64,000 nt of DNA from Escherichia phage MN04, in the sequence record MT129654.1, one strand, 5' to 3'. Numbering within the stretch: the stretch's first letter is position 1; each line of letters opens with the position of its first letter. Both the position numbers and the translations under genes were made by a program. Positions 5,140 through 63,135 of this stretch are shown in pieces. Under the pieces are notes generated by a model, which was not told the DNA's origin, did no database searches, and saw only the letters and a list, made by a program, of their open reading frames with translations.

Positions 5140-5180
5140 GTTTACAAGGTCTATAGACATGATACTATAGACCTATCAAA
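5140..5180 (+). promoter_or_regulatory. T4-type early promoter within a promoter/stem-loop cassette
   Basis: GTTTAC at 5140-5145, -10 region within the inverted repeat ggtctatag/ctatagacc, conserved core gatactatagacctatcaa. Confidence 0.6.
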
Positions 5181-5208
5181 ACAAACCCAACCTAACGGAA
5201 ACAAAAAA

Positions 5209-5502
5209 ATGAAAACTTATCAAGAATTTATCAAAGAATCGACAGATTTGTATTCCATTAACAAAGCGGCTATGGCCGATATTAGTAGCGATATTAAAAG
5301 AGCCTTTGGCTCAGGTGATGTTGATAAGGCTCAGCAAATTACTATTACAGTAAATGGTAAACCTGTTAGTATAGCATTCAATACGGTTAAAAAGAAATAT
5401 TATATTAATCTTGGTGATGATATCCACTTTACAAAATATAAGACTTTTTCCGGTCTTACCAAAGATAAAGTAGTTTCTAAAATCAAAGAAATTACAAAAT
5501 AA
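5209..5502 (+). CDS. internal protein with capsid targeting sequence MKTYQEFIKES (97 aa)
   Basis: N-terminal CTS as in T4 IPI/IPII/IPIII; position next to 57B as for T4 ipI. Confidence 0.65.
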   Translation: MKTYQEFIKESTDLYSINKAAMADISSDIKRAFGSGDVDKAQQITITVNGKPVSIAFNTVKKKYYINLGDDIHFTKYKTFSGLTKDKVVSKIKEITK

Positions 5503-5504
5503 TT

Positions 5505-5548
5505 GTTTACAACGGGCTTTAGTTGATGATACTATAGCCCTATCAAAA
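5505..5548 (+). promoter_or_regulatory. T4-type early promoter cassette
   Basis: GTTTAC 5505-5510 plus conserved gatactatagccctatcaa core. Confidence 0.6.
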
Positions 5549-5571
5549 CAAATGAGTGATTGGAGAATAAA

Positions 5572-5757
5572 ATGAAACGTTGTGAATTAATTAGAAATGT
5601 TACTGCACTGACCGCCGTTACTGCTTTTGGCTTTAGTATGTTTGCAGGATTCATGTTGGATTTGCTTACAACTTCCGAGAATACAATCTCTTTAGTAGTG
5701 GCATTCTTAATTGGTTCAATCTCTTTCGTTATGGATAAAATCTCTAAAGGTGAATAA
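5572..5757 (+). CDS. small membrane protein (61 aa)
   Basis: ATG 5572 with SD ggag; hydrophobic helix; ATGA-coupled to the next gene. Confidence 0.5.
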   Translation: MKRCELIRNVTALTAVTAFGFSMFAGFMLDLLTTSENTISLVVAFLIGSISFVMDKISKGE

Positions 5758-6158
5758 TGAACGTTGAATATTATGTATATGCGGATTACGAAAATAATCC
5801 GTCTAAAGATGAAGATAATCGTTTAGGTGTTGATGCTTTTGAATCCCCTGCAGCAGCATGGCAATGGGTTGAAAGTACTGATATTCCTTACCGTTATATT
5901 GAAGTGGTAGACCATGCAGGAAACAAGTATCCTAAGGAAGCATATGTTCCTTCCGGAAAGGTAAATTTCCTTTTGTTTGCGGGTGATAATTATTATCCAC
6001 GCGGTGGGTATACTGATTTAATCGCTAAAGCCTTCTCTGAAGATGAACTGCACGATATCATTAAAGAAAACGAGAATAAGCCTCTTTACGGTTCTAATCG
6101 TTTTGGTTGGTGGCAGATTGTTAATGCCAATACCCACACTATTGTAGACGAGGGTTAA
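5757..6158 (+). CDS. hypothetical protein (133 aa)
   Basis: ORF, translationally coupled (TAATG). Confidence 0.5.
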   Translation: MNVEYYVYADYENNPSKDEDNRLGVDAFESPAAAWQWVESTDIPYRYIEVVDHAGNKYPKEAYVPSGKVNFLLFAGDNYYPRGGYTDLIAKAFSEDELHDIIKENENKPLYGSNRFGWWQIVNANTHTIVDEG

Positions 6159-6449
6159 ATGTTATACGTTAAGGTTACTAATCCAGAGAATGGCTATAAA
6201 TCCGATCAGGTTGCAGCTGAGTTGTTGATTCGAAATTACGGCAAAGATGCTGTGCTTGATGTTCAACAGGTTAATATTGGCCGTAGTTCAAGCGATGTTA
6301 AACTCAAAGTTAACGGCCATCGCTATAATTCTGTTAACTTTACTTTTTATACTGCAACTGAAAATGGATTGGTCGAATACGACATCTTTAAAAATCCTTT
6401 GAAGATTGCTTCTATTAAACTTGATTATATTAATATGTGGCCACAATGA
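6159..6449 (+). CDS. hypothetical protein (96 aa)
   Basis: ORF immediately after upstream stop. Confidence 0.45.
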   Translation: MLYVKVTNPENGYKSDQVAAELLIRNYGKDAVLDVQQVNIGRSSSDVKLKVNGHRYNSVNFTFYTATENGLVEYDIFKNPLKIASIKLDYINMWPQ

Positions 6450-6922
6450 ATATTAAATTCGGACAAGTTATTCCTAAAGGTTATGCGATTGAAATTGAAA
6501 CCTGGGAAAATGATGGCGATAACTATAAAACCCAGACTATATTTGGCGTAGAAGAACAAGAAATCCAACAGTACAAATATATCCTAGAACTTTTCCATGG
6601 TTCGCATTGCAACAACCCGGATAAATGCGGTAATTCGGAATGGGACGTAGTTAAGCATTTGGTTATTGCTCACATTGAATCCGGTGTAAAATCAGGCCAA
6701 TTGACTCCTGAATTTTTAGATAAAGTCCTCGGTATCCAAGACTTAGAAGCCTTGCTGAACGATGACGAAGAAGAATACTACTTGAATGAAGCCCTTACTG
6801 AGCTCCTTGGTATGGCTTGTGAATATGGTGGCGATTTTATCCGTGCAATTTCTTATGTCAAGCTGTATATCATTGAAGAAGAAATTAAAATCCCTGATGT
6901 GAAAGCACTTGATATGCTTTAA
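6437..6922 (+). CDS. hypothetical acidic protein (161 aa)
   Basis: ORF overlapping upstream gene end. Confidence 0.5.
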   Translation: MATMNIKFGQVIPKGYAIEIETWENDGDNYKTQTIFGVEEQEIQQYKYILELFHGSHCNNPDKCGNSEWDVVKHLVIAHIESGVKSGQLTPEFLDKVLGIQDLEALLNDDEEEYYLNEALTELLGMACEYGGDFIRAISYVKLYIIEEEIKIPDVKALDML

Positions 6923-7323: not shown

Positions 7324-7397
7324 GGCCCTGTAGCTGGACGGTCAAGCGAGCGACTCATAATCGCTGGATGGTGGTTCGATTCCACCCAGGGCCACCA
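7324..7397 (+). tRNA. tRNA with anticodon CAU (Met, or Ile2 if lysidine-modified), CCA encoded
   Basis: Acceptor stem GGCCCTG/CAGGGCC, anticodon stem AGCGA/TCGCT with loop CTCATAA, T-arm GGTGG-TTCGATT-CCACC. Confidence 0.8.
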
Positions 7398-7401
7398 ATT
7401 T

Positions 7402-7476: not shown

Positions 7477-7480
7477 AATA

Positions 7481-9177: not shown

Positions 9178-9182
9178 TGAAA

Positions 9183-9236: not shown

Positions 9237-9280
9237 GTTTACACCTCCTTTAAATATGATACTATAGACCTATCAAAACA
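9237..9280 (+). promoter_or_regulatory. T4-type early promoter cassette
   Basis: GTTTAC 9237-9242 and conserved gatactatagacctatcaa. Confidence 0.6.
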
Positions 9281-9300
9281 ACAGTGTGAAGGAGAGTAAA

Positions 9301-9564
9301 ATGGATAATTATGGTGAATTGTTTAATTTCTTTATGAAATGCGTTCCTGAAGAATTTGGTGCTACTGTTAACGATATTAAGGTTATCGGTCCTGAACACC
9401 CAGTGTATGAAACCTATGCAGTAATGGGTAACGAAGATGGACAGTGGTATACAATTAAAGTTGTGATTAATATGTTCTCAGCTGAAGGCTACGCCAAAAC
9501 GTCTACCAAAGTTTACCATGATAACGATTTTGATGCAGAAGATTATTTCAATAATATGAAATAA
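9301..9564 (+). CDS. hypothetical protein (87 aa)
   Basis: ATG 9301 with SD ggagag. Confidence 0.5.
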   Translation: MDNYGELFNFFMKCVPEEFGATVNDIKVIGPEHPVYETYAVMGNEDGQWYTIKVVINMFSAEGYAKTSTKVYHDNDFDAEDYFNNMK

Positions 9565-9566
9565 TT

Positions 9567-9605
9567 GTTTACATGGGCCCATGATTGAGATATTATGAGC
9601 CCATA
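9567..9605 (+). promoter_or_regulatory. T4-type early promoter with stem-loop around the -10
   Basis: GTTTAC 9567-9572, -10 TATTAT 9591-9596 flanked by the imperfect inverted repeat gggcccat/atgagccc. Confidence 0.55.
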
Positions 9606-9621
9606 ATTTGAGGAGAGCATA

Positions 9622-10020
9622 ATGAATATCGAAGATAAAGAAATGCAAGAGTTATATAATTCATTAACACCTGAACAACAAAAAGCTGCCAAAGAATTAG
9701 AGAAAGCTCTTGCTTTCAACTTGGCAAAAACCGATTGGGCCGCCATGTATGAAGAAAAAAGGAGATCGGAAATTGAAGCTGCCGAGAGAAATGAATGGAT
9801 TGTAGAAACCAAGATTTCTGATGGTGGTTGCTCTGTTGAGGTGTCAGCTGTGGTTAAAGGTAGTCATGGCGAAAAATCACTAGGTTGGCATAATGAGGCA
9901 AACAAATATATTGTTCTCTCAACGTCAAAAACTTATGGTCAAAAGGTTCCTGTATCCAAAGCTATTATTAAGCAAGCTCAATGGGAAGCCAATGAAATCT
10001 GCCTCACCAAAATGAAATAA
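9622..10020 (+). CDS. hypothetical protein (132 aa)
   Basis: ORF with SD gaggagag. Confidence 0.5.
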
Positions 10021-10023: not shown

Positions 10024-10060
10024 GTTTACAACCCTCAGAGGACGGGGTATAATGTCCTCA
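10024..10060 (+). promoter_or_regulatory. T4-type early promoter, -10 inside a hairpin
   Basis: GTTTAC 10024-10029, TATAAT 10048-10053 between inverted repeats GAGGAC and GTCCTC. Confidence 0.6.
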
Positions 10061-10096
10061 TGGATTACAAAATACCAACCGACTGAAGGAAATACT

Positions 10097-10690
10097 ATGA
10101 ATACTTTAAAGAAAATTGTTGAGTTCATCCGTTCTAAACTGGGTACCGCAATGACTCAGAACCTGTCAATCGAAGACCAGTATACTAAAGCTGCTTCTAC
10201 CCTGATTGATAAAATTACTGAACTCCAGACTGCTCATGTTAAGTCTGTGAATGAAGAAAAACGCATTCGTGCATTGGCAAATGAAAAAGACCAACTGGCT
10301 GCTTCTAAAGAACGTGAAATTCGTAAACTGATTGCCGAAGGCGCCGATGTTCAGGTACATGCTAAACTCGGCCTCCTTTATCGTCGTACAGCCACTCAAC
10401 TTCGTAAGAAAGCTGACGATTATATCGAAATGCGTAATGAAATTAAACTGAAGGTCAAGGAACTTGATGACTCTCGCCAGGAACTGGCTGTTAAGCTCGA
10501 GTACATCCGTGAAACTCGTAATATGGCTGCCCTTGGTATTGCTACTGCCGATGATGTGGTTGAAATCGCTGCACTGACTAAGATTGATATTGAAGACACT
10601 CTGATGCGTGTAGAAACGTTTAAAGGCCCACAAGTTGGAATGGATACGACTTCAGCTGATATCGAAGACTACATTAATTCACTTAAGTAA
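10097..10690 (+). CDS. coiled-coil protein (197 aa)
   Basis: ATG 10097 with SD gaagga; heptad-rich sequence. Confidence 0.5.
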
Positions 10691-13732: not shown

Positions 13733-13753
13733 GTTTACTCTGAGGAAAATATT

Positions 13754-13921
13754 ATGTATAATGTTCTTATTGTTTTTGTTACTCACCCACAAGGTGGCGT
13801 AAGGCAGAATACTTCCCAAGTGGTCCAATTTTCTTCGGTAGAGGCTGCTAATCTAGCCGCAACGCGTATTGAAGCAAAAAAATCTGAACTGGGTAAATAT
13901 GAAGTAACTCGTCTTTATTAA
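13754..13921 (+). CDS. small protein (55 aa)
   Basis: ATG 13754 preceded by the conserved gaggaaaatattatg initiation region; not in the ORF track because under 60 aa. Confidence 0.4.
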   Translation: MYNVLIVFVTHPQGGVRQNTSQVVQFSSVEAANLAATRIEAKKSELGKYEVTRLY

Positions 13922-14906: not shown

Positions 14907-14950
14907 GTATACAAGGTCTATAGGTGTGATACTATAGACCTATCAAAACA
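14907..14950 (+). promoter_or_regulatory. T4-type early promoter cassette
   Basis: GTATAC -35 variant, inverted repeat ggtctatag/ctatagacc, core gatactatagacctatcaa. Confidence 0.55.
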
Positions 14951-14972
14951 ACAGAGTGAAATGGAGAATAAA

Positions 14973-15185
14973 ATGAAACTTTCTAACCAAGCAATCAACA
15001 TGTTAAACGAAGTTCGTGCAGCTGGTGCTAAATGTCTGATGGTTAACACTCGTGACGGTGACCTTCGTCAAGCATTTGGTGAATTGAAATCTGCTGACCT
15101 GGTTAAATGTTCAGTTGGTATTGGTAACGCACTTCGTGTATCCTTATCCCCTAAAGGTAAAATGTACTTTTTCAACAAAAAGTAA
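14973..15185 (+). CDS. hypothetical protein (70 aa)
   Basis: ATG 14973 with SD ggag. Confidence 0.5.
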   Translation: MKLSNQAINMLNEVRAAGAKCLMVNTRDGDLRQAFGELKSADLVKCSVGIGNALRVSLSPKGKMYFFNKK

Positions 15186-17669: not shown

Positions 17670-17705
17670 GTTTACATCTCCTAGAATTGTGATAGTATAT
17701 CTACA
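17670..17705 (+). promoter_or_regulatory. T4-type early promoter
   Basis: GTTTAC 17670-17675, -10 TAGTAT 17694-17699. Confidence 0.5.
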
Positions 17706-17748
17706 GTTACTTGAACAGACTAATTAAATTTACATTTGAAGGACCCGT

Positions 17749-18345
17749 ATGAAAACGTATAAAGAATTTATCACCGAAGCTACTGCAGGAAAGGTCAAAG
17801 GCATTAATAAAGATGAGTGGACCTACCGAGGAAACGGCGTTGACAACCCAGGAAACGGCTTTGACGCTAAAACAGCTCCTATTGAACGGTATTTAGCTAC
17901 AAAAGCTTCCGACTTTAAAGCTTTCGCCTGGGAAGGACTTCGCTGGCGTAACGACCTAAATATTGAAGCTGATGGACTTAAATTTGCTCATATTCAGGAT
18001 GTTGTTGCTAGTAACTTAGACGCAGCTTTTGTTAAAGCTGACAGCGACCTTCGTCGCTGGAATTTAAAACTGTTCTCTAAACAGAAAGGTCCGGTATTTG
18101 TACCTAAAGCAGGTAAATGGACTATTGATAATAAATTGGCTAAAGCAGTCAACTTCGCTGGTCTTGAATTTGCCAAGCATAAATCAGCATGGAAAGGTCT
18201 TGATACAATGGCTTTCCGTAAAGAATTTGCCGATGTTATGACTAAAGCCGGCTTTAAGGCAGAGCTAGATACCTCTAAAGGTACGTTTAAAGACGCTAAT
18301 ATTCAGTACGCTTACGCCGTTGCTAATGCCGCTCGTGGTAATTAA
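17749..18345 (+). CDS. internal protein with CTS MKTYKEFITEA (198 aa)
   Basis: CTS N-terminus; SD gaagga. Confidence 0.65.
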   Translation: MKTYKEFITEATAGKVKGINKDEWTYRGNGVDNPGNGFDAKTAPIERYLATKASDFKAFAWEGLRWRNDLNIEADGLKFAHIQDVVASNLDAAFVKADSDLRRWNLKLFSKQKGPVFVPKAGKWTIDNKLAKAVNFAGLEFAKHKSAWKGLDTMAFRKEFADVMTKAGFKAELDTSKGTFKDANIQYAYAVANAARGN

Positions 18346-18405
18346 TAAAGCCTATACTGACCCTTAAATCCGTGATAGAATACTTCTATCAACTTAAGGA
18401 ATAAT

Positions 18406-18705
18406 ATGAAAACTTATCAAGAATTTATTACAGAAGCCAAAGCTCCTAAAGCATTCCAAATAGGTGTCCAAGGCACCTTAGACCAAGAATATGTTGATGC
18501 TATTGTAGCAAGCCTCGGTAAACAGGGTGTACAAGTGGATTTGGTTGATTTTACTAAAGGTAATACTTTTAATATTGTTACATCTAAAGGCTCTTTAGCT
18601 AAAGTTAAAAAGGCCTTTGGTGTAGCCCAAGCATACGAAATCGACCACTCCGAATTGGAAAATAAAGGTCGCCAGAACACAATTAAAGGTTCTGGTTCTT
18701 TCTAA
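18406..18705 (+). CDS. internal protein with CTS MKTYQEFITEA (99 aa)
   Basis: CTS N-terminus; SD taaggaa. Confidence 0.65.
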   Translation: MKTYQEFITEAKAPKAFQIGVQGTLDQEYVDAIVASLGKQGVQVDLVDFTKGNTFNIVTSKGSLAKVKKAFGVAQAYEIDHSELENKGRQNTIKGSGSF

Positions 18706-20195: not shown

Positions 20196-20240
20196 GTTTA
20201 CATCTCCTGTAGACGTGGTACTATAGACCTATCAACTACA
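20196..20240 (+). promoter_or_regulatory. T4-type early promoter cassette
   Basis: GTTTAC 20196-20201; inverted repeat tctcctgtag/ctacaggaga flanks the core ggtactatagacctatcaa. Confidence 0.6.
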
Positions 20241-20252
20241 GGAGATTACAAA

Positions 20253-20711
20253 ATGTCAGAAATTAATTCAGAAGTATTCATCCGCCGCAACAAATTACGT
20301 CGTCAGTTCGAAACCGAATTTCGTGAACTTAACGCGTCCATCAAAAAAGCCGCCATCAAGAGCGGTGTCCCAGCTTTCTTTATTAAGTACTCTAATCACT
20401 TGTTGGACCGTGCTATCCAACGTGAAATTGACGAAAAATATGTTTTCTCTTTGTTCAAGAAGCTCCATAATCATGTTAAAGAAATCCATGAATTTTTAAT
20501 CCAGGAGCCTCTTCCTGACATAGAATCTGAAATTGTCCCAGGTAAAGTGTATCGTCCACTGCGTCTCGAGATTACCGATAAAACCTTATGGTTGGGTATG
20601 ACCGTAGATCGTAAACATCCTGATAAAGGATATTCATTAAAATGTCGTATGGCATTTGTTAACTCTAAACGTTTAGAAGGTAAAACCAGCACGAAAGTAA
20701 TCTATCTTTAA
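20253..20711 (+). CDS. hypothetical protein (152 aa)
   Basis: ATG 20253 with SD ggag. Confidence 0.5.
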   Translation: MSEINSEVFIRRNKLRRQFETEFRELNASIKKAAIKSGVPAFFIKYSNHLLDRAIQREIDEKYVFSLFKKLHNHVKEIHEFLIQEPLPDIESEIVPGKVYRPLRLEITDKTLWLGMTVDRKHPDKGYSLKCRMAFVNSKRLEGKTSTKVIYL

Positions 20712-24290: not shown

Positions 24291-24294
24291 TCAA

Positions 24295-24321
24295 AGGTCT
24301 CACTTCGGTGGGACCTTTTTT
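24295..24321 (+). terminator. rho-independent terminator
   Basis: Hairpin ggtctcac-ttcg-gtgggacc followed by TTTTTT. Confidence 0.7.
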
Positions 24322-24330
24322 CGTTTTAGT

Positions 24331-24375
24331 GTTTACATCCTCTAGGAACGTGATACTATAGACCTATCAACTAAT
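24331..24375 (+). promoter_or_regulatory. T4-type early promoter cassette
   Basis: GTTTAC 24331-24336 and core gatactatagacctatcaa. Confidence 0.6.
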
Positions 24376-24387
24376 GAGGAGAACAGT

Positions 24388-24624
24388 ATGAAACTTACAA
24401 GTACTACGGTTTCATTGGAATATGAAATCAATAACCGCCTCCTTGAGATTAAGATATTCGACGACCGAAGTATCTTTGCTGACTACCGAGGGTACAGAAT
24501 TCGTCTAGAAAAGGACGAGCTCAAGGAACCATGGCTCCTTAAAGACACATTAAAGGGTTGTGGGTGTAAGCTGAAGACCACTCAAGCCCAAGAATTAATT
24601 TCTACTATCAACAAATACTGGTGA
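24388..24624 (+). CDS. hypothetical protein (78 aa)
   Basis: ORF with SD gaggag. Confidence 0.5.
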   Translation: MKLTSTTVSLEYEINNRLLEIKIFDDRSIFADYRGYRIRLEKDELKEPWLLKDTLKGCGCKLKTTQAQELISTINKYW

Positions 24625-28409: not shown

Positions 28410-28450
28410 GTTTACACTTTCGTAGAGCATGTTATTATGGACCTATCAAA
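28410..28450 (+). promoter_or_regulatory. T4-type early promoter cassette
   Basis: GTTTAC 28410-28415, -10 TATTAT 28433-28438, then ggacctatcaaa. Confidence 0.55.
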
Positions 28451-28475
28451 TCTACTGAGTGAAACGGAGAATATA

Positions 28476-29456
28476 ATGTTAACTATCAAAATCAACAAAG
28501 GTATCTATCGCGGTAATGAAATCTCTGGTACGTTCATGAGTTCAGGTAAAACCTGGTTCCCTAATAAAATTCATGAATCCGAAGCTCATCTCGGTGATGG
28601 CAAGGTATTTGTACAGATTGATGGTGTTGAACGTGGTGTATGGGTGTTCAAATGTGACGTTGAAATGGAAGGTGTTGAAGCTCCTGCAATGGTTACTGAA
28701 TCCGCTGAAGAAATGAAACATCGCATCAACAAACGTTTTAAAGTAATGAACATGATGACTAACGGAATCATTGATGGTAAAATTCGTTCCCTTATCATCT
28801 CTGGTGCCGCAGGTATCGGTAAAACGTATTCTTTGGATAAAGCATTACAAAATGCCCACGAAAATGAAACTATCGAATATAAATCAATCAACGGAAAGAT
28901 TAGTGGAATCGGTCTTTACGAGCAGCTTTGGAATAACCGCGGCCCTAATAGTGTTCTTCTTATTGATGATGTTGATGTATTCTCTGACATGGATATCCTG
29001 AACCTTCTTAAAGCTGCATTGGATACCGGTGAGAAACGTAAGGTGTGCTGGAGCACTTCAAGTTCTTATCTCGATGATAAAAATATCGATAAAGAATTCG
29101 AATACGAAGGCACCATCGTGTTCATCACCAACGTTGATATTGATCGTGAATTAGAGCGTGGAACTAAACTTGCTCCACACCTCCAAGCTTTAGTATCTCG
29201 TTCAGTTTACTTAGACCTCGGAGTTCACTCGAATGAAGAGATTATGGTTCGTGTTGAAGACGTTATCCTGTCCACCGATATGATGCAAAACCGAGGTCTG
29301 ACTGATGCTGAGACTTATCAAGCTCTAGCATGGATGAAGGCCAATGTATCTCGTCTTCGTAACGTATCATTACGTACAGCTCTTTATCTGGCGGACTTCA
29401 TTGCCACCGATAAAAATGACTGGAGCGAAATCGCCGAAGTTACACTTCTGAAATAA
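28476..29456 (+). CDS. AAA+/P-loop ATPase (326 aa)
   Basis: Walker A GAAGIGKTYS and Walker B LLIDDVD; ATG 28476 with SD ggag. Confidence 0.6.
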   Translation: MLTIKINKGIYRGNEISGTFMSSGKTWFPNKIHESEAHLGDGKVFVQIDGVERGVWVFKCDVEMEGVEAPAMVTESAEEMKHRINKRFKVMNMMTNGIIDGKIRSLIISGAAGIGKTYSLDKALQNAHENETIEYKSINGKISGIGLYEQLWNNRGPNSVLLIDDVDVFSDMDILNLLKAALDTGEKRKVCWSTSSSYLDDKNIDKEFEYEGTIVFITNVDIDRELERGTKLAPHLQALVSRSVYLDLGVHSNEEIMVRVEDVILSTDMMQNRGLTDAETYQALAWMKANVSRLRNVSLRTALYLADFIATDKNDWSEIAEVTLLK

Positions 29457-29810: not shown

Positions 29811-29855
29811 GTTTACATCTCCAGTAGAAATGATACTATAGACCTATCAACTACT
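29811..29855 (+). promoter_or_regulatory. T4-type early promoter cassette
   Basis: GTTTAC 29811-29816; inverted repeat ctccagtag/ctactggag flanks the core gatactatagacctatcaa. Confidence 0.6.
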
Positions 29856-29865
29856 GGAGGTTATC

Positions 29866-30390
29866 ATGAACGCTAAAGATATTTTTTCATTGATTAATTT
29901 TAACAATGGTAATTTCAAATCTGAAAAACAAAGCAAGTTCTTTAACGACGTTGCTTGTGGTAATGAGATTACCGTATCTGGAGGAGAGATTTACAAAAGC
30001 CGTTGGAACTGGATTGCTATCATCGATTCAGTTGGTATTGTAGAGCTCTATAAAAACACCAACAAAAAACGTACTCTTCACTGGAGTCGTGAAACCAACC
30101 AAGCTTATCAAGCTGAGCGTAATAAACGTTTAATGCCTACTGAATCTGACCTGGCAAACGTTAAATCAGATATCGCTTATTTTGATAACTTGATTGCCGA
30201 ACAACAAGCGGTTATTGATAAGTTTGACGAAATCAAAGCTTGTAAAGAGATTCCTGAATTCATGCGGGAATCAGTAAACGAACAGTACGCCCTCACTTCA
30301 GGTCGTATTGAGCAGTACAAATCACAACGAGCTGAACGCCAAGCTCTGCTTCAGAAATTTGAAGAGCGTTTAAAGACGGTTCTCGCATAA
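29866..30390 (+). CDS. hypothetical protein with C-terminal coiled coil (174 aa)
   Basis: ORF with SD ggaggt. Confidence 0.5.
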   Translation: MNAKDIFSLINFNNGNFKSEKQSKFFNDVACGNEITVSGGEIYKSRWNWIAIIDSVGIVELYKNTNKKRTLHWSRETNQAYQAERNKRLMPTESDLANVKSDIAYFDNLIAEQQAVIDKFDEIKACKEIPEFMRESVNEQYALTSGRIEQYKSQRAERQALLQKFEERLKTVLA

Positions 30391-32483: not shown

Positions 32484-32520
32484 GTTTACATCCAAGGACG
32501 GATGGAGTATAATCCTTTTA
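32484..32520 (+). promoter_or_regulatory. T4-type early promoter
   Basis: GTTTAC 32484-32489, TATAAT 32508-32513. Confidence 0.6.
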
Positions 32521-32541
32521 TCAACTACTGAGGAGAATATC

Positions 32542-33552
32542 ATGACCCGTACTGAATACATTAATGCCTTTACTACGTATATCACTGCCAACACCCCTCC
32601 ATTAACCCCATATGTGGTAATAGTTTCTAATATCAATAAATGGGTCGACCAAATTGATGATGCATTATCGCGCTGTTTCAAAGCTGAAATCGAAAAGATA
32701 GCGGGTCGTTTGTTTATTCCTGATATCGTAGATACATTTAAAGGTTCTCGACTGCTTTCTCGACTGGTCAATAAGGACATCCTTTCTGAGTTCGGTAAAG
32801 AGAAATATCCGGGTTCTAGCCATGTTGTTAGCTACAAATGGTTTGGTGATACCATAAAAGATTATGTCAAAATTAAAGGTATGGACCCTAGTAGTTTATT
32901 TCCGCAACGTTGGGTTAGCGAATTCAAGGCTAACTCTGCATTAATTCTCAAAGCGGCCTCTAAAACTATAGTTTCCGGTGATTGTCGTACTATTCACCCG
33001 ATGGCTAATTGCATGATTAAAACAAATAGTTATAAAGGAAAAGCTATTATTTCTGTTATTTGGTCACCTAATAGGAAACCTAAAGATGATGCGGAAGTTG
33101 TAAAGTATCAAGATATTGCTTACGATACCTTGAATACTATCGAACAAGCCTTAGCTTTGATGAATACAGTAGAGAAATATGAGACCCAAGAAGTTAAACA
33201 CCACTTAGGCTGGAAAGGATATGAAGTTTTAGTAACAGTTCGCGAAATCAAATACCCTGTTCTAAAAACTGACGCTGAAATTTACCAAGAAAAATGTGAG
33301 GAAATTGTGAATACTGATAAAGAGCCTGCTACATTAGAAGACTTGATTAACGACTTGAACAGCCCTATCATGGCCCATACACCAATTACTAAATCCAAGT
33401 TACCGGAAATCGTTGCCTTAGAAAAAGCGTATAAAGATGCCTTGGCTATTAACAAAAAACTGACTGGCCAATATACTGCTGCCAAGAAACTTTGGGAAGA
33501 GTCTACCAATCGTTTAGACCGTCTTGAACAAGCCCTGGAGCTGTTGAAATGA
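32542..33552 (+). CDS. hypothetical protein (336 aa)
   Basis: ATG 32542 with SD gaggag; C-terminal coiled coil. Confidence 0.55.
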   Translation: MTRTEYINAFTTYITANTPPLTPYVVIVSNINKWVDQIDDALSRCFKAEIEKIAGRLFIPDIVDTFKGSRLLSRLVNKDILSEFGKEKYPGSSHVVSYKWFGDTIKDYVKIKGMDPSSLFPQRWVSEFKANSALILKAASKTIVSGDCRTIHPMANCMIKTNSYKGKAIISVIWSPNRKPKDDAEVVKYQDIAYDTLNTIEQALALMNTVEKYETQEVKHHLGWKGYEVLVTVREIKYPVLKTDAEIYQEKCEEIVNTDKEPATLEDLINDLNSPIMAHTPITKSKLPEIVALEKAYKDALAINKKLTGQYTAAKKLWEESTNRLDRLEQALELLK

Positions 33553-35223: not shown

Positions 35224-35340
35224 AACCATGGTATACCGCTCGATGGGAAACCGTCGAGCCAGAGGAACCGGTTTACAACGATTCCGAAATAGAGTATAAT
35301 GAACCTTCAAACAATGATTTAATCGATATGGAGTTTGGAT

Positions 35341-35514
35341 ATGAGTACCAAAATTGAAATTGGCCGTCATAAAGGCCGTCTGATTGAACATTCGCTTTAC
35401 GAGTTATCGGATTCAGGTTCTTTACCTGACCTAGAGTCTGATTTGATTAAAGCTGCAGCCGATTATATCCATTGGCTTGAAGCGCAACTCCGCTTTGCTG
35501 ATAAGGCGTTCTGA
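35341..35514 (+). CDS. small protein (57 aa)
   Basis: ATG 35341; stop overlaps next ATG; under the ORF-track cutoff. Confidence 0.4.
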   Translation: MSTKIEIGRHKGRLIEHSLYELSDSGSLPDLESDLIKAAADYIHWLEAQLRFADKAF

Positions 35515-37122: not shown

Positions 37123-37165
37123 ATTTACTTCCTCTCCTCATGTGTTATAGTCTATCCTATCAACA
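37123..37165 (+). promoter_or_regulatory. early promoter variant with long hairpin
   Basis: ATTTAC -35, TATAGT -10, inverted repeat cctcatgtgtt/aacacatgagg, cctatcaa core. Confidence 0.45.
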
Positions 37166-37180
37166 CATGAGGAGAACATT

Positions 37181-37363
37181 ATGACCATCCAAGATAAAGA
37201 AATTAAAGCCGACCAGTATTATTTGGTAAATGGACGTGCGGTTCGTGTAATTGCTGCTAGTGATTCAGACGTATGGTATCGTGTACTAGACCATAAAAAT
37301 ATTCCATTGATGGTATGTGACGGTAGCTTGTTTTGTTCGATAGCTAAGGAAATTAAATTATGA
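37181..37363 (+). CDS. hypothetical protein (60 aa)
   Basis: ORF with SD gaggagaa. Confidence 0.45.
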   Translation: MTIQDKEIKADQYYLVNGRAVRVIAASDSDVWYRVLDHKNIPLMVCDGSLFCSIAKEIKL

Positions 37364-38049: not shown

Positions 38050-38250
38050 ATGAATCCTGAATCTAAATTATCACAACGAATTGCTGAAGCCCGTCGTCAG
38101 TTCTTTGAAAATATGGTAGCTCAAGGTATTGATGACGAAGTTTTTCTAAACTGGTTTTGGAATAACAAATATTCAAAATGTGCAGGAGCAATATTAATAT
38201 CGGCCGCAATGATGTATGAAGGTTGGAAAGGCGCACTAGCACAAAAATAG
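38050..38250 (+). CDS. hypothetical protein (66 aa)
   Basis: TAAATG-coupled ORF. Confidence 0.45.
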   Translation: MNPESKLSQRIAEARRQFFENMVAQGIDDEVFLNWFWNNKYSKCAGAILISAAMMYEGWKGALAQK

Positions 38251-38285
38251 TTTACAAACTCTTGGGACCAGAGTATAATGGTCCC
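38250..38285 (+). promoter_or_regulatory. T4-type early promoter, -10 inside a hairpin
   Basis: GTTTAC 38250-38255, TATAAT 38274-38279 flanked by gggacc/ggtccc. Confidence 0.6.
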
Positions 38286-38319
38286 CACGGATTATAAATT
38301 TTAAACTGAGGAAATTATT

Positions 38320-38649
38320 ATGTCACAAGCTATTAAAAACGTACTGAACTCTTTCGCTTTCGATAAAGTTAATGAACTGATGAAAACTGGCTTTGTAACT
38401 CCTCAGGTTCTTGACCAATGGGTTGCTGAACTGTTACCAATCATGCACTCTAAAGACCAAAAAATTGGTAAGAACGGTATTCGTGAAATCCTGGTTCAAT
38501 ATATTCTTGATGAGTTTGATGTTGCTGCCTTCGGTGTTGAATCTAAAGCTTGGCACCCAGGTGAAATCACAGACAAAACCATCCGTCGTATGAAGAACCA
38601 ACGTAAGAAAAAATTCGTTGACCTGAAAATTGTTAAGGCTGCGAAATGA
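38320..38649 (+). CDS. hypothetical protein (109 aa)
   Basis: Same 25-nt initiation region as the gene at 30454. Confidence 0.5.
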   Translation: MSQAIKNVLNSFAFDKVNELMKTGFVTPQVLDQWVAELLPIMHSKDQKIGKNGIREILVQYILDEFDVAAFGVESKAWHPGEITDKTIRRMKNQRKKKFVDLKIVKAAK

Positions 38650-50265: not shown

Positions 50266-50300
50266 GTTTACATACCACATGGAACGTGGTAGTATCCTTC
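50266..50300 (+). promoter_or_regulatory. T4-type early promoter
   Basis: GTTTAC 50266-50271, hairpin accac/gtggt, -10 TAGTAT, cctatcaa core. Confidence 0.5.
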
Positions 50301-50325
50301 CTATCAACTACATGAGGAAATTATA

Positions 50326-50562
50326 ATGGAAGCTTTAATCGTTAGTGCTGGTGTTTTAGGATTTGGTTCTCTGGTTATTATGTTCATTGGTTACTTTTTA
50401 CCATGGATTCTGGCTCTTCTGCGAGGCACTCGTAGCAATGTTGGAATCTTCTTCCTTAATCTCCTGTTAGGATGGACTATGATTGGTTGGGTAGTGGCTT
50501 TAATCTGGGCTATCGTCGCTGAACGTAAATCAAACGCACAAATCATTATCGTTAAACAATGA
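50326..50562 (+). CDS. small two-helix inner-membrane protein (78 aa), positional counterpart of Imm
   Basis: Two hydrophobic helices; first gene after 43 as T4 imm. Confidence 0.45.
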   Translation: MEALIVSAGVLGFGSLVIMFIGYFLPWILALLRGTRSNVGIFFLNLLLGWTMIGWVVALIWAIVAERKSNAQIIIVKQ

Positions 50563-57137: not shown

Positions 57138-58561
57138 AAACTATTTTGGCTCAACTGCTAGGCAATAGTGATTATTTCACTAAGGTCTGGCCTTATATGA
57201 ATGATTCTTATTTTGACCAGGGTCCGGCAAAGACCCTTTTCAAAGAAATCAAAAAACATGTCAATGAATATAATGCGGTGCCTTCTAAAAATGCTTTGAG
57301 TATTGCATTAGATAACAGCACCCTTTCAGAAGTTGAACACCAAGGAGCTAAAGAGCTTTTAAGTTCACTGAACGCTGGCCCTGAAGACCAAGAATGGTTG
57401 GTTAAAGAGACAGAGAAATATGTTCAGAAGGCAGCGATGTATAATGCCACTTCAAAAATTATTGAAATTCAAACTAATGCCGACCTTCCGGTTGAGCAAC
57501 AAAATAGAAAACTCCCAGGTATTGGTGCTATTCCAGATATCATGCGTGATGCATTATCGATTTGTTTCGATTCTGAATTAGGCCATGACTGGATGGATGA
57601 CTATGAAGAACGTTTTAAAAGTTATTCCGATAAAGCACGTAAGGTTCCATTCCGTCTTAATATTCTGAATAAGATTACTAAGGGTGGCGCTGAGTTTGGT
57701 ACTGAAAACGTATTGTTGGCAGGAACAAACGTAGGTAAGTCTCTGGGTCTGTGTTCATTGGCTGCTGATTACCTTCAATCCGGTTACGATGTTCTTTATA
57801 TCTCCATGGAGATGGCAGAGGAAGTATGCGCTAAGCGTATCGATGCTAACCTTCTAGATGTATCACTGGATGATATTGATGATGGTCACGTCTCATGGCC
57901 TGAATATAAAGCTAAGATGGATAAGTGGCGTTCAACTGCTACTTTAGGTCGTTTAAAGATTAAACAGTATCCTACTGGTGGTGCTAATGCCGATACATTC
58001 CGTGCATTATTAAACGAATACAAGCTCAAACAAAACTTTGTCCCACAGGTCGTTATCGTCGACTACTTGGCTATCTGTGCTTCATCCCGTACGAAAGTTT
58101 TCTCTGAAAACAGTTATGGATTGATTAAGATGGTTGCCGAAGAACTACGTGGACTTGCAGTAGAGAAGAAATTATTGTTGTGGACTGCAGCCCAGACTAC
58201 TCGTGGTGCGAACGTTGCCGCCGAAATCGATATGGCTGATATCGCTGAATCCTTTGGTATTGCACATACTGCAGACTTCATGTTAGGTGTGGTCGAGACA
58301 GAAGAGTTTGCTCAGATGGGTATGCAGATGGTTAAGCAGCTTAAATCTCGTTATGGTGATAAGAGCTACTACAACAAATTTAAGATTGGTGTTAAGAAAG
58401 GAAACCAGCGTTGGTATGAAGTTGAAGACGATTCTAACCCAGGCCCAGTGAACACCGTTCGTGAGGCTACAGGTGAAATGAACCGCCAAGCAGAGGTCAA
58501 TCGCCAGTCGCGTGTTAATAGAAGCGATTTAGACGATTTAGCAGCATCTATCAAATTTTAA
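57122..58561 (+). CDS. 41: replicative DNA helicase gp41 (DnaB-like, 479 aa)
   Basis: MVEVVETILAQLLGNSDYFTKVWPYM...; Walker A GTNVGKS, ISMEM, VIVDYL match remembered T4 gp41. Confidence 0.95.
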   Translation: MVEVVETILAQLLGNSDYFTKVWPYMNDSYFDQGPAKTLFKEIKKHVNEYNAVPSKNALSIALDNSTLSEVEHQGAKELLSSLNAGPEDQEWLVKETEKYVQKAAMYNATSKIIEIQTNADLPVEQQNRKLPGIGAIPDIMRDALSICFDSELGHDWMDDYEERFKSYSDKARKVPFRLNILNKITKGGAEFGTENVLLAGTNVGKSLGLCSLAADYLQSGYDVLYISMEMAEEVCAKRIDANLLDVSLDDIDDGHVSWPEYKAKMDKWRSTATLGRLKIKQYPTGGANADTFRALLNEYKLKQNFVPQVVIVDYLAICASSRTKVFSENSYGLIKMVAEELRGLAVEKKLLLWTAAQTTRGANVAAEIDMADIAESFGIAHTADFMLGVVETEEFAQMGMQMVKQLKSRYGDKSYYNKFKIGVKKGNQRWYEVEDDSNPGPVNTVREATGEMNRQAEVNRQSRVNRSDLDDLAASIKF

Positions 58562-58584
58562 GGAGCTTCGGCTCCTTTTTTTTG
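58561..58584 (+). terminator. rho-independent terminator
   Basis: Hairpin ggagc-ttcg-gctcc followed by a T8 run. Confidence 0.75.
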
Positions 58585-58592
58585 TTTTAAGG

Positions 58593-58635
58593 GTTTACTT
58601 CTCCTGTAGGCATGATACTATAGACCTATCAACTT
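58593..58635 (+). promoter_or_regulatory. T4-type early promoter cassette
   Basis: GTTTAC 58593-58598 and core gatactatagacctatcaa. Confidence 0.6.
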
Positions 58636-58645
58636 GGAGAACAAA

Positions 58646-58963
58646 ATGAAAACCATCGACTGTAAAGCGGAATATAAAGTGTATTACCATGGAAGTTGTA
58701 GTGTTGCTAATATTGGTAATATGCTTTGTCCTCCTGAGGAAACAGGAGTTCTGTCTGAAACTGGTCGTAAGAAAAACCTAAATCGTGTGTTCTTTACTGA
58801 AGATATCGGTTTGGCTAAGATTTATGCTGGACGAGCTGCTCGTTCGGTGGGAGGAGAACCTCGTCTTTATCGTGTAATTGCTCCGGTAGATGTGGTTTGT
58901 TTAAATGATACCAAAGGCGCTACGGTTTATCACGCTGAATGGGCCTTCTGTGAGGAAATCTAA
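58646..58963 (+). CDS. hypothetical Cys-containing protein (105 aa)
   Basis: ATG 58646 with SD ggag. Confidence 0.5.
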   Translation: MKTIDCKAEYKVYYHGSCSVANIGNMLCPPEETGVLSETGRKKNLNRVFFTEDIGLAKIYAGRAARSVGGEPRLYRVIAPVDVVCLNDTKGATVYHAEWAFCEEI

Positions 58964-59549: not shown

Positions 59550-59595
59550 GTTTACATCGGTCTATGGTAGTGATACTATAGACCTATCCACTAAT
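59550..59595 (+). promoter_or_regulatory. T4-type early promoter cassette
   Basis: GTTTAC 59550-59555; inverted repeat ggtctatgg/ctatagacc; core gatactatagacctatcca. Confidence 0.6.
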
Positions 59596-59607
59596 GAGGA
59601 GTTAAAA

Positions 59608-59901
59608 ATGAAAAAGTTATTAATCGCAGCAATCCTTACAGTAGCATCATGTGGCACGGCTCCGGTAACTGCCGGATTGGATAAAGACCTTTGTGAATGG
59701 TCTATGACTGCAGACCAAGAGTCAGTTGAACATCAGATTTATGCCGATATCATGAACATCACTAAACGTGACCGTCCTGACATGGTTAAAGAAGTGTCCG
59801 ACCAATTAGCTTCAACCGGTGTTATGCAGTACAACTATGTTTTGTATTGTGACGCTAATTTCGATAACAAAAACATTGTTAAAGAGGTTACAGGTGAGTA
59901 A
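59608..59901 (+). CDS. sp: Spackle, periplasmic superinfection-exclusion protein (97 aa)
   Basis: Signal peptide plus DKDLCEWSMTADQ...VMQYNYVLYCD matches remembered T4 Sp (61.3); length identical. Confidence 0.8.
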   Translation: MKKLLIAAILTVASCGTAPVTAGLDKDLCEWSMTADQESVEHQIYADIMNITKRDRPDMVKEVSDQLASTGVMQYNYVLYCDANFDNKNIVKEVTGE

Positions 59902-61971: not shown

Positions 61972-62168
61972 ACAGGAACTCCGCTAAAGAATCCAATTAT
62001 GCTTAATACGTGTTCCATTGTAACCGCTGGTAAAATTACCCCTTGGCTAGCGGCTACAGGAACTACTAAAAGATTCCAAAGGAATACGTCTAGCGCAAGA
62101 AAACCTAACATCATTTTCTTGTCTTTCTTTTCAGCCAATTTCCAGATTTGGTAAAAAATACTACCCAT
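61968..62168 (-). CDS. small membrane protein on minus strand (66 aa)
   Basis: Strong SD AGGAGG 5 nt upstream of minus-strand ATG at 62168; hydrophobic; tail-to-tail with gene 61. Confidence 0.5.
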   Translation of the reverse strand: MGSIFYQIWKLAEKKDKKMMLGFLALDVFLWNLLVVPVAASQGVILPAVTMEHVLSIIGFFSGVPV

Positions 62169-62262
62169 GTTATCCTCCTGTTAAATTAATATTTATTCGC
62201 TTTAATCTAGCAGTTTATAATTATCTAACTTACTAACAAATGAATTGATAAGGAAAAATATA

Positions 62263-62784
62263 ATGGCTCATTTTAATGAATGTTCTCAACTGATTGCCGG
62301 TGCCGATAAAGCTGAAGAAGCTTATTTTAATGCTCTGATTCACGAAGATAAAGACCCTCTGCAGGTTATGCTTGATATGCAGAAATCTTTGCAGGTTCGT
62401 TTAGCTAAAGATAAGCCTGAATATAATCGTCATCCTGATGATTTGGCCACTGCGGGTGAAGTTGTCGATTGGCTTCGCAACCAGAAAGATTATATTGATG
62501 ACGAATTCCGTGAACTTCTGACTTCTCTTGGTGGTATGAGTAATGGTGAAAAAGATGCATCTGCAGTATGGAAGCCTTGGAAAGCTCAACATGCTGAACG
62601 TCGTGAAACCCTGATTAACGATTTGTCTCCTGAAGACCAGCTCGAAATTAAATTCGAAATGATTGATATTCTGCACTTTGTTCTGAATATGTTCCAGGGT
62701 CTTGGACTGACCGCTGAAGAAATCTTTAAACTGTATTACCTTAAAAATGCCGAGAACTTTGCTCGTCAAGACCGAGGTTATTAA
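62263..62784 (+). CDS. 56: dCTP pyrophosphatase gp56 (MazG-like, 173 aa)
   Basis: MAHFNECSQLIAGADKAEEAY...PLQVMLDMQ...DDEFRELLTSLG...EEIFKLYYLKNAENFARQDRGY matches remembered T4 gp56. Confidence 0.92.
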   Translation: MAHFNECSQLIAGADKAEEAYFNALIHEDKDPLQVMLDMQKSLQVRLAKDKPEYNRHPDDLATAGEVVDWLRNQKDYIDDEFRELLTSLGGMSNGEKDASAVWKPWKAQHAERRETLINDLSPEDQLEIKFEMIDILHFVLNMFQGLGLTAEEIFKLYYLKNAENFARQDRGY

Positions 62785-62825
62785 GTTATAAATACACCTG
62801 TAATTAAACAACAAAGGAGTTAATT

Positions 62826-63059
62826 ATGGGTGGTTTCGTTAATATCAAAACCTTTACGCATCCAGCTGGTGAAGGTAAAGAAGTTAAAGGTACTGAGGTT
62901 TCAGTCCCGTTTGAAATCTATTCAAATGAGCATCGTATTGCCAATGCTCATTATCAGACTTTCCCTTCGGCCGTTGCAGCCTATACTACTGTAGTGACTG
63001 ATGCAGCCGATTGGCGAACTAAGAACGCGGCGATGTTTACGCCAACTGATATTGTTTAA
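62826..63059 (+). CDS. hypothetical protein (77 aa)
   Basis: ORF with SD aaggag. Confidence 0.5.
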   Translation: MGGFVNIKTFTHPAGEGKEVKGTEVSVPFEIYSNEHRIANAHYQTFPSAVAAYTTVVTDAADWRTKNAAMFTPTDIV

Positions 63060-63065
63060 TTATAA

Positions 63066-63087
63066 GGAACCTTCGGGTTCCTTTTTT
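63066..63087 (+). terminator. rho-independent terminator
   Basis: Hairpin ggaacc-ttcg-ggttcc followed by TTTTTT. Confidence 0.75.
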
Positions 63088-63097
63088 CGTTTTAGTA

Positions 63098-63135
63098 GTT
63101 TACTTTACGAGTAGGCCATGTTAAGATAGATGTAT
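63098..63135 (+). promoter_or_regulatory. early promoter candidate
   Basis: GTTTAC 63098-63103; hairpin aagata/tatctt in the -10 region. Confidence 0.45.

Follow-up and report, generated by a model that had tools for sequence, protein, structure and literature searches.

Many predicted early promoters of Escherichia phage MN04 lie in stem-loop cassettes that probably insulate their genes from read-through transcription

Genes and early promoters in the window

The window, that is the whole 64,000-nucleotide stretch of Escherichia phage MN04 (MT129654.1) analyzed here, contains a recurring early-promoter cassette in which the promoter boxes can be interleaved with an inverted repeat. Judged by its closest relatives, the window is the early/middle region of a Dhakavirus (JS98-like, T4-family) phage. 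A megablast search with window 5-15 kb returned UP19 as the best match (95% identity over 90% of the query), followed by CLB_P2, IME281, and JS98, and the annotated syntenic regions of UP19 and JS98 were colinear with the window at 93-98% identity. The gene run comprises 5/53, 4, 2, 3, 1, 57, the ip genes, three tRNAs, e, regB, tk, and rI, continued by the nrdC cluster, 49, 55, 47/46, 45/44/62, regA, 43, imm, uvsX, 41, sp, 61, and soc. Almost all of these genes are carried on the + strand.

The pattern GTTTAC-N17-TAnnnT matched exactly eight times (0.84 expected) and GTTTAC-N18-TAnnnT ten times (1.06 expected). The combined 18 matches against about 1.9 expected, 18 of 18 on the + strand, bear out the recurrence of a GTTTAC and -10 motif that had been described in the original prediction, which was made from the sequence letters. 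A generic sigma-70 scan of the window gave counts at chance level, and only the T4-specific GTTTAC pattern was informative. After inspection of their context, 19 early promoters were retained as credible, all on the + strand and each just upstream of a Shine-Dalgarno (SD) sequence and an ATG; at least 18 had been claimed, and one possible site with only a TGn and a -10 occurs at about 18373. The -35 boxes lie at 5140, 5505, 9237, 9567, 10024, 14907, 17670, 20196, 24331, and 28410, and at 29811, 32484, 35271, 37123, 38250, 50266, 58593, 59550, and 63098. Exceptions to the pattern are a 19-nt spacer at 5505 and the -35 boxes GTATAC (14907) and ATTTAC (37123). The -10 is TGn-extended in 12 of the 19, and the 25 nt 5' of the -35 are 71% A+T compared with 61% window-wide, with 35271 as the exception. 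A stop codon of the upstream gene is visible just 5' of most copies, while the open reading frames (ORFs) behind all 19 promoters are conserved in JS98 or UP19, with an SD-like sequence and ATG 21-47 nt from the predicted start. Two motif matches were discounted: GTTTAC-N18-TATAAT at 13733..13762 (+) is probably fortuitous, its TATAAT lying inside a 165-nt insertion created between SD/ATG repeats, and the match at 37827 sits within an ORF.

The core TGATACTATAGACCTATCAA / GATACTATAGACCTATCAA was found in 10 copies at up to three mismatches (six exact, three with one mismatch, one with three), all on the + strand, where 0.02 are expected by chance for a 19-nt core over the whole window; this agrees with the ten or more near-invariant copies reported before. 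The copies occur at 5161, 5528, 9258, 14928, 20217, 24352, 28431, 29832, 58614, and 59572. Irregular kilobase spacing and promoter anatomy exclude a CRISPR array, as had also been stated. The statement that most promoters lie in a near-identical stem-loop cassette was generous: the core is present in 10 of the 19, while folding of the -35-to-ATG segment against shuffles gave a strong stem-loop (z<=-3, lowest -7.2) in only 7 of the 19 and z=-2.0 in one more. The promoters are listed below with these z values; P(unpaired) is the predicted probability that the SD is unpaired in the read-through context.

5140..5211, + strand: cassette 1, GTTTAC, TGA-TACTAT, exact core; inner helix AGGTCTATAG/CTATAGACCT; z -6.15; ip-type gene of 97 amino acids with MKTYQEF leader, gene body swapped in UP19
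5175-5208, + strand: leader of cassette 1, CA-rich tract AUCAAAACAAACCCAACCUAACGGAAACAAAAAAAUG without a GGAG-type SD; may be unstructured, with S1-dependent initiation
5505..5574, + strand: cassette 2, spacer of 19 nt, in which GGGCTtTAG compensates for the core variant GCCC; z -2.04; trna.4-like ORF, SD GGAGAATAAAA equal to the RegB/S1 consensus
9237..9303, + strand: cassette 3, exact core; spacer CCTCCTT pairs with SD AAGGAGAG (outer helix); e.8-like ORF, P(unpaired) 0.16
9567..9624, + strand: promoter 4, TATTAT, without core; hairpin ATGGGC.CATGAT/ATTATG.GCCCAT around the -10; z -3.02
9622-10020, + strand: gene of promoter 4, ORF absent from UP19, junction in ATGAAATAAnnTGTTTACA
10024..10099, + strand: promoter 5, TATAAT in the GAGGAC/GTCCTC loop; e.6-like ORF; right partner of the 9574-10008 indel
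14907..14975, + strand: cassette 6, -35 GTATAC, exact core; inner helix AGGTCTATAG/CTATAGACCT; SD GGAGAATAAAA equal to the RegB consensus; z -3.13
17670..17751, + strand: promoter 7, TGA-TAGTAT; no significant hairpin (z +0.69); ipIII-like gene; promoter absent from UP19; similar to the T4 ipIII promoter, with the 3' arm decayed here
18373..18408, + strand: possible extra promoter, no recognizable -35; TGA-TAGAAT, CTATCAAC, SD, and ATG of an ip gene
20196..20255, + strand: cassette 8 (regB), one-mismatch core; outer helix ATCTCCTGTAG/CTACAGGAGAT encloses the -10 and predicted start site and masks the SD; z -3.84
24293..24390, + strand: cassette 9, UUCG terminator 24293-24318, then -35 at 24331, exact core; weak embedded hairpin, z -0.21
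28410..28478, + strand: cassette 10, three-mismatch core, TGT-TATTAT-GGACCTATCAA; nrdC.10-like gene; P(unpaired) 0.04
29811..29868, + strand: cassette 11, exact core; outer helix ATCTCCAGTAG/CTACTGGAGGT masks the SD; z -3.59; nrdC.8-like gene, P(unpaired) 0.01
32484..32544, + strand: promoter 12, TATAAT, partial start-site motif TTATCAACTAC; weak structure, z -1.22; nrdC.4-like gene
35271..35343, + strand: promoter 13, TATAAT; no hairpin (z +1.11), no A/T-rich tract; pin-like ORF; adjoins a 317-nt insertion
37123..37183, + strand: promoter 14, -35 ATTTAC, TGT-TATAGT, CCTATCAA; 55.6-like ORF; long helix CTCTCCTCATGTGT/AACACATGAGGAGA around the -10 and predicted start site masks the SD; z -7.24, -25.5 kcal/mol
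38250..38322, + strand: promoter 15, TATAAT in the GGGACC/GGTCCC loop; 55.2-like ORF; z -1.47
50266..50328, + strand: promoter 16, TGG-TAGTAT, CCTATCAACTAC; imm; weak structure, z -1.42
58560..58648, + strand: cassette 17, UUCG terminator 58560-58577, then -35 at 58593, exact core; z -1.43; partial TTCTCC/GGAGAA pairing, SD equal to the RegB consensus
59550..59610, + strand: cassette 18, one-mismatch core; inner helix GGTCTATGGTA/TACTATAGACC with one G.U pair; sp (spackle); z -3.13
63064..63156, + strand: promoter 19, UUCG terminator 63064-63083, then -35 at 63098, TGT-TAAGAT; mrh.2-like ORF; z -1.59

Pairing of the promoter spacer with downstream sequence

With the -10 TACTAT placed at -12 to -7, the core consists of TGA (-15 to -13), TACTAT, AGACCT (-6 to -1), and A (+1) followed by TCAA, with transcription probably starting at the A of ATCAA. 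The window has 23 copies of the start motif CTATCAA on the + strand and 4 on the - strand; 13 of the + copies are in promoters, and the promoters have C at -3/-2. Positions -3 to +4, CCTATCA, fall outside the consensus context for nicotinamide adenine dinucleotide (NAD) capping, HRRASWW.

Every inverted repeat has its 5' arm within the promoter spacer, ahead of the predicted start. The 3' arm occurs in three forms: the end of the -10 with the discriminator, CTATAGACC (5140, 5505, 14907, 59550); an unrelated sequence that sets the -10 in the loop or in an arm (9567, 10024, 38250); or the leader including the SD (9237, 20196, 29811, 37123, and more weakly 24331 and 58593). All inverted repeats quoted in the original prediction were recovered, as was TATAAT in the loop of other hairpins (GAGGAC/GTCCTC at 10024 and GGGACC/GGTCCC at 38250). 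However, ggtctatag/ctatagacc does not flank the core as had been described, as its 3' arm belongs to the core.

With the 5' arm placed ahead of the predicted start, the embedded hairpin cannot form in RNA made from the cassette's own promoter, only in RNA read through from upstream. The leaders predicted for the cassettes' own transcripts were unstructured, with minimum free energies of 0 to -2.2 kcal/mol and 14 of 19 folding worse than their shuffles, which speaks against the RNA 5'-end structure suggested earlier. Across the 19 promoters, the spacer paired with its own downstream segment at -12.3 kcal/mol compared with -8.7 kcal/mol for swapped partners (permutation p<2e-5), while a control segment 5' of the -35 reached -4.4 kcal/mol. 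Besides the hairpin-bearing promoters, three further cassettes had a canonical terminator directly upstream, and four promoters had neither.

Covariation and conservation among related phages

A scan of IMG/VR with the exact 17-mer of the core returned 73 loci, with about 14 or more copies per Dhakavirus genome and always on one strand. Paralogous arms covaried perfectly (CTCC-TG-TAG/CTA-CA-GGAG, CTCC-AG-TAG/CTA-CT-GGAG, and CTCC-AT-TAG/CTA-AT-GGAG). The core variant GCCC occurred in about four copies per genome in another genus (lineage C). For the inner helix, GGTC was matched with GACC in 14 cases and GGGC with GCCC in 25, with a single discordant case (counts 14/0/1/25, Fisher 6e-10, over related copies). 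Arm variants compatible with G.U pairing recurred, including GGTCTgTAG, GGTCTATgG, GGGtTATGG, and CCCATACTG to CCtATACTG. For the outer helix, the first 11 nt of the spacer paired with the SD region of their own cassette at -5.31 compared with -4.44 for swapped partners (p<5e-5), and anti-SD 4-mers were present in the 5' parts of 28% of unique spacers against a background of 7.9%.

An enclosing hairpin is retained at the regB promoters of five lineages, with arms of differing sequence; in four of the five it masks the SD. A single consensus structure from one alignment of these promoters was unusable since helix lengths and registers differ, and per-sequence partner-swap tests were used for that reason. 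Other embedded hairpins occur at nrdC.8- and nrdC.10-like genes of other genera. In T4 (NC_000866, 60500-66800 examined), the regB, ipII, and ipIII promoters all lie within strong hairpins. The regB hairpin, TTCCTCTTgACTG/CAGTtAAGAGGAg around TATAAT at -23 kcal/mol, has the SD-masking design, and the ipII hairpin has 14 bp around the -10. Over about 60 nt, the T4 denV cassette does not differ from the Dhakavirus denV cassette; its arms are ATCTCCTGTAG/CTACAGGAGA. This identity despite far more diverged genomes suggests horizontal exchange of the cassette or gene. The core is present at T4 denV and absent from the T4 regB, ipII, and ipIII promoters examined.

The T4 denV mRNA gave a primer extension signal 3 min after infection, indirect support for early transcript 5' ends at cassettes of this kind, and its SD was cleaved by RegB in vivo once the sequence 3' of it was altered (PMC1702504). 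The same SD was accessible in bulk early mRNA (Durand 2006, PMC1702504), which is as expected for own-promoter transcripts. Literature reviews give regB "a typical early promoter" and mention no hairpin. At about 18359-18363, the window is without a 900-nt JS98 segment (20450-21349 of the reverse-complemented JS98 pieces) that holds orf114 and denV with its cassette, so that denV appears to be missing from this part of the phage genome.

Terminators and SD masking in read-through RNA

The embedded hairpins all lack a T-run and went unflagged in the terminator scan, which places them outside the intrinsic terminators. The scan identified the following canonical terminators in the window.

24293-24318, + strand: canonical terminator
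27593-27610, + strand: canonical terminator
40755-40774, + strand: canonical terminator
58560-58577, + strand: canonical terminator
63064-63083, + strand: canonical terminator

UUCG terminators lie 13-15 nt 5' of the -35 at three cassettes (24331, 58593, 63098), all of them with weak embedded hairpins. Among all unique cassettes collected, a strong embedded hairpin was present in 2 of 36 with an upstream terminator compared with 103 of 184 without, and, counted by gene family, in 1 of 18 compared with 37 of 69 (Fisher 1.5e-4). This exclusivity argues for two alternative ways of handling read-through transcription and gives indirect support to an action of the hairpin on read-through RNA.

SD accessibility over the 19 cassettes was 0.33 in read-through RNA and 0.60 in own-promoter RNA. 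Strong masking in the read-through context (P(unpaired) <0.2) was predicted for 5 of 19 cassette genes compared with 4 of 105 other genes of the window. The masked subset comprises 9237, 20196, 29811, and 37123, and also 28410 and 14907, where the predicted masking is by segments 5' of the -35 (14847-14880 for 14907 and 28375-28395 for 28410; TCCTTTCAC against GTGAAATGGA and TTCTCC against GGAGAA). Masking as a universal property was rejected, since shuffling the spacers over all 19 cassettes left SD accessibility not significantly changed (0.33 vs 0.39, p 0.13); the spacer-specific effect is the property of a subset. On the predicted start sites, SD masking is thus real for that subset and conserved at regB.

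GGAG is present in 14 of the 19 cassette SDs. RegB/S1 cleavage sites in T4 early leaders have the consensus GGAGRAYARAA (Durand et al. 2006, PMC1702504). The SDs at 5505, 14907, and 58593 match it at 11 of 11 positions, two of them as exactly GGAGAAUAAAA, and those at 9237, 24331, and 28410 at 10 of 11; regB itself is driven by cassette 20196. By sequence and predicted fold, these are candidate single-stranded GGAGRAYARAA sites in early initiation regions, as in T4, and the own-promoter leaders that carry them are predicted to be unstructured. The cassettes differ in that the candidate sites are predicted to be resistant where they are masked in read-through RNA. RNA structure protects against RegB (PMC1702504, PMC3014915), and the masked read-through RNA would therefore be both untranslated and RegB-resistant.

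Proposed model and alternative explanations

We propose that these are sigma-70-dependent early promoters in cassettes of the promoter-early-stem-loop (PeSL) type, whose hairpins insulate the downstream gene against read-through, with SD masking in a subset and with short homologies that serve reassortment. We give this reading a probability of about 0.72; promoter activity, start-site position, and the effect on read-through RNA are inferred in it. Each cassette would consist of an A/T-rich, upstream (UP) element-like tract, a GTTTAC -35, a 17-19 nt spacer, a -10, the conserved discriminator/start AGACC-T-ATCAA, and a short unstructured leader with an SD that is usually GGAG, a RegB-type target. 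The spacer would act as the 5' arm, with the end of the -10 and discriminator (inner helix), the leader with the SD (outer helix), or in some cases both as the 3' arm. In read-through RNA, the hairpin would most likely insulate the downstream gene by attenuating or processing that RNA, in line with the published PeSL view, and in about one quarter to one third of the copies the SD would also be sequestered. Genes with a masked SD would then be translated, and exposed to RegB, from their own early transcript only. The -35/UP and -10/core segments would provide short homologies at which left halves (UP, -35, and spacer) reassort with right halves (leader and gene) and at which ORF-plus-promoter units are gained or lost.

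A wider claim is more tentative and in our view somewhat short of an even chance: that a substantial subset of early promoters in T4-family phages is nested in an SD-masking hairpin and translationally insulated from upstream transcription, with conservation by compensatory change from Dhakavirus to T4 (regB, denV). If true, cassette genes would be silent on delayed-early, middle, and late read-through RNA as well as after landing in a new genomic context, and the SD-masking hairpin would be functionally interchangeable with an upstream terminator. It would also parallel, at an early promoter, the T4 e/49/I-TevI device and IS10 fold-back inhibition. As T4 regB and denV share the design, insulation is testable in the best-studied phage system.

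Several points weigh against the proposed model. A clearly significant hairpin is present in only about 40% of promoters and there is none in four. The cassette copies are related, and the p-values for covariation and exclusivity therefore overstate their independence; the exclusivity of terminators and hairpins could also come from a few left-half module types. The excess of breakpoints in cassettes, set out below, loses significance once gene boundaries are taken as the null (p 0.36), and the junctions of the orf114+denV deletion lie outside any cassette. Finally, conservation beyond what sigma-70 needs is explained in part by spacer pairing and the known preference for C at -3 to -1 (PMC1524935), but the core is kept without an inner pairing partner in 64 of 78 unique Dhakavirus-type copies. 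Something else must therefore constrain or homogenize the core, and its invariance in unpaired copies could be due to elements that RNA polymerase reads, to concerted evolution, or to a factor.

Concerted evolution, that is, recombination or gene conversion with spread of the cassette and no function beyond that of a good promoter, is a possible main cause of the near-identity of the core, although we hold it to be somewhat doubtful. In its favor, left halves are joined to different right halves across the core, a Dhakavirus genome has about 14 or more exact copies compared with about four of the GCCC variant in a lineage-C genome, T4 has the core at denV and not at the regB, ipII, and ipIII promoters examined, and the 60-nt denV cassette is shared by T4 and Dhakavirus despite much greater genome divergence. 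The spacers adjoining the core are nevertheless highly diverse, which would need very short conversion tracts or selection on both. Concerted evolution is compatible with the PeSL-cassette explanation and not exclusive of it.

Rather unlikely is that the stem-loops are only terminators or attenuators of upstream transcription, as in the original PeSL view, with incidental SD complementarity. One RB49 stem-loop placed between promoter and lacZ cut expression as much as the rrnB T1 terminator did (PMC2839356), a terminator-like task fits the exclusivity of hairpins and canonical terminators, and most hairpins are of the inner-helix type (5140, 14907, 59550, 9567, 10024, 38250) and do not touch the SD. 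Yet the embedded hairpins are all without a T-run and absent from the terminator scan, the start of the spacer is 3.6-fold enriched in anti-SD words and pairs better with its own SD region than with others, and at regB an SD-masking helix is kept with different arms in four of five lineages and in T4. The published lacZ assay, moreover, does not separate termination from effects on translation or RNA stability.

An extra factor-binding site had been suggested from the conservation. That the invariant core (-15 to +5) binds a phage or host factor regulating early promoters, either by activation or by shut-off after 2-3 min, appears improbable. Its invariance in the 64 unpaired copies would fit, and T4 early promoters show "additional regions of consensus" beyond the sigma-70 elements and a shut-off whose mechanism is not fully understood (PMC2988021, PMC3014915). 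The core, however, lies wholly within the RNA polymerase footprint, including the TGn, -10, discriminator, and Y-1/R+1 that the polymerase reads, has no dyad symmetry of its own, and is missing from 9 of the 19 promoters as well as from the T4 regB, ipII, and ipIII promoters, T4 having it at denV.

Least probable of all is that the inverted repeats act as DNA, as recombination-promoting cruciforms or hairpins, as nuclease targets, or as products of quasi-palindrome templated mutation. Such templated mutation occurs in T4, and T4-type phages encode endonuclease VII and gp46/47. In favor are also the junction at 28427, which falls at the -10/core between the arms, and the strand-asymmetry test of RNA versus DNA folding (G.U versus C.A), which was significant alone but mostly compositional by the swapped-partner control, so that folding of the + strand, as RNA rather than DNA, is only weakly favored. 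RB49 mini-circle crossovers were mapped at the loop or edge of a stem-loop (PMC2839356), but G.U-compatible arm substitutions recur, the 5' arm consistently precedes the start site, the 3' arm tracks the SD, and exclusivity with RNA terminators has no obvious DNA rationale.

Comparison with known systems

PeSLs have been described in the T4-type phages RB49/phi1, PST/T4, and nt-1/KVP40 (Arbiol et al. 2010, PMC2839356; Comeau et al. 2014, PMC4122927), and reporter assays in RB49/phi1 pointed to promoter and attenuator activity (PMC2839356). In these papers, all stem-loop subclasses lie upstream of the start site and are read as terminators, with no mention of translation, ribosomes, or read-through (PMC2839356, PMC4122927). 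The MN04 cassettes share the composite intergenic design of an A/T-rich tract, a sigma-70-like early promoter, an SD, and an ATG, repeated across the early region, with a stem-loop between -35 and -10, overlapping the -10, or, in terminator-like form, just upstream. Some indel or replacement junctions between close relatives also fall inside the element. The likeness to PeSLs claimed in the original prediction is upheld. The cassettes differ in belonging to another phage group (JS98 has only a passing mention in PMC2839356), in a -35 of GTTTAC as opposed to TTGACA, in the 20-nt invariant -15 to +5 core in half of the copies, and in a subset whose 3' arm reaches past the predicted start site over the SD, outside the five published subclasses. 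With promoter boxes, A/T-rich tract, stem-loop, SD, and ATG all found, the cassettes are PeSLs and T4-type early promoters by the sequence-level definition of these classes.

T4 early promoters carry GTTTAC at the -35 and C at -3 to -1 (Nolan et al. 2006, PMC1524935; consensus in Hinton 2010, PMC2988021). The cassettes resemble them in GTTTAC at -36 to -31, the TGn-extended -10, the A-rich UP tract, C at -3 to -1, the position upstream of early genes and ORFans, and the T4 denV promoter, which is an identical cassette. The start region is far more conserved here than the T4 logo implies, AGACCTATCAA being nearly invariant in 10 copies.

Promoters of T4 e, soc, 49, and I-TevI are nested in a hairpin that sequesters the ribosome-binding site, with an effect shown experimentally for e and I-TevI (Uzan & Miller 2010, PMC3014915). 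As in the cassettes, the SD pairs with a segment 5' of the internal start, and the long RNA is masked while the short RNA is open. The internal promoter is a late one there (gp55, TATAAATA) and the masked RNA is early, whereas here an early sigma-70 promoter is combined with masking of the predicted read-through RNA. The cassettes therefore resemble this class without belonging to it, since their internal promoters are early and not late. A similar logic is found in the fold-back inhibition of IS10/IS50, which Davis, Simons, and Kleckner reportedly described in 1985 and which is said to shield transposase genes from external transcription. There too a mobile gene cassette has its own promoter within a structure that masks the ribosome-binding site only in RNA from outside; the element is of another kind without sequence relationship, and the analogy is one of logic only.

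The literature was searched for early-promoter hairpins that mask the SD and no prior description was found, which does not prove that none exists. New here are the constant position of the 5' arm in the spacer, the subset of 3' arms over the SD with compensatory change across genera, and the exclusivity of hairpins and terminators. These three observations make of the PeSL "stem-loop" a concrete hypothesis of read-through insulation that is partly translational. Promoters and PeSLs are expected in a T4-type genome, and they help to annotate transcription units and to explain local gain, loss, and swapping of genes such as the ip genes and ORFans.

Recombination and module exchange

Several indel or replacement junctions with UP19 fall inside cassette repeats, in line with the modular shuffling that had been claimed, while an excess over gene boundaries was not found. 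UP19 is without ORF 9622-10020, with the junction (9574/10008) in ATGAAATAAnnTGTTTACA, which is common to cassettes 9567 and 10024. At 28427, the -35 and spacer differ from those of UP19 and JS98, and homology with both phages begins again precisely at the -10/core. Between the conserved N-terminal leader and the next cassette (junction 5496), the ip gene body 5239-5495 is swapped relative to UP19. In total, 8 of 27 breakpoint edges fall in cassettes, which make up 4.1% of the window (p 9e-6). The same gene can have different spacer modules in different phages. In orthologous cassettes, the left half is more divergent than the discriminator onward in a gapped comparison, which is noisy and mixes lineages; the ungapped version is confounded by leader indels, and the gapped one is only supporting.

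Three ip-type genes (5209-5502, 17749-18345, and 18406-18705) have a common N-terminus, MKTYQEF/MKTYKEF, presumably a capsid-targeting sequence, and bodies that differ between relatives; homology with UP19 is lost after about the first 30 nt of the ORF. At 13757-13921, an insertion of 165 nt that UP19 does not have holds a 55-amino-acid ORF and is bounded by 15-nt direct repeats of the SD/ATG region, GAGGAAAATATTATG; translation-initiation regions, besides promoters, can therefore be crossover sites.

Other features of the window

Rfam covariance models run over the window matched no family at the cassettes, the sole matches being the three tRNAs at 7324-7553. A 144-nt insertion absent from UP19 and JS98 lies beside this tRNA cluster (7681-7824). 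Just 5' of cassette 9237, a hairpin AAAGGAGAC-TTTG-GTCTCCTTT (9180-9201) was flagged as a - strand terminator and may act in both directions. A further insertion absent from UP19 and JS98, 317 nt at 34903-35219, holds a 106-amino-acid ORF without a Pfam match. UP19 has a 683-nt insertion directly after gene 46 (window position about 43908; UP19 piece 9432-10115), annotated as a homing endonuclease, which the window and JS98 lack. On the late (-) strand, an ORF of 251 amino acids at 27618-28373 combines a collagen-like repeat with a tail needle knob domain of the Sf6 type (Phage_tail_NK, E 5e-32). It is placed in the early nrdC region inside the replaced segment 27392-28427 and is absent from UP19 and JS98, where the counterpart is an unrelated 380-nt stretch.

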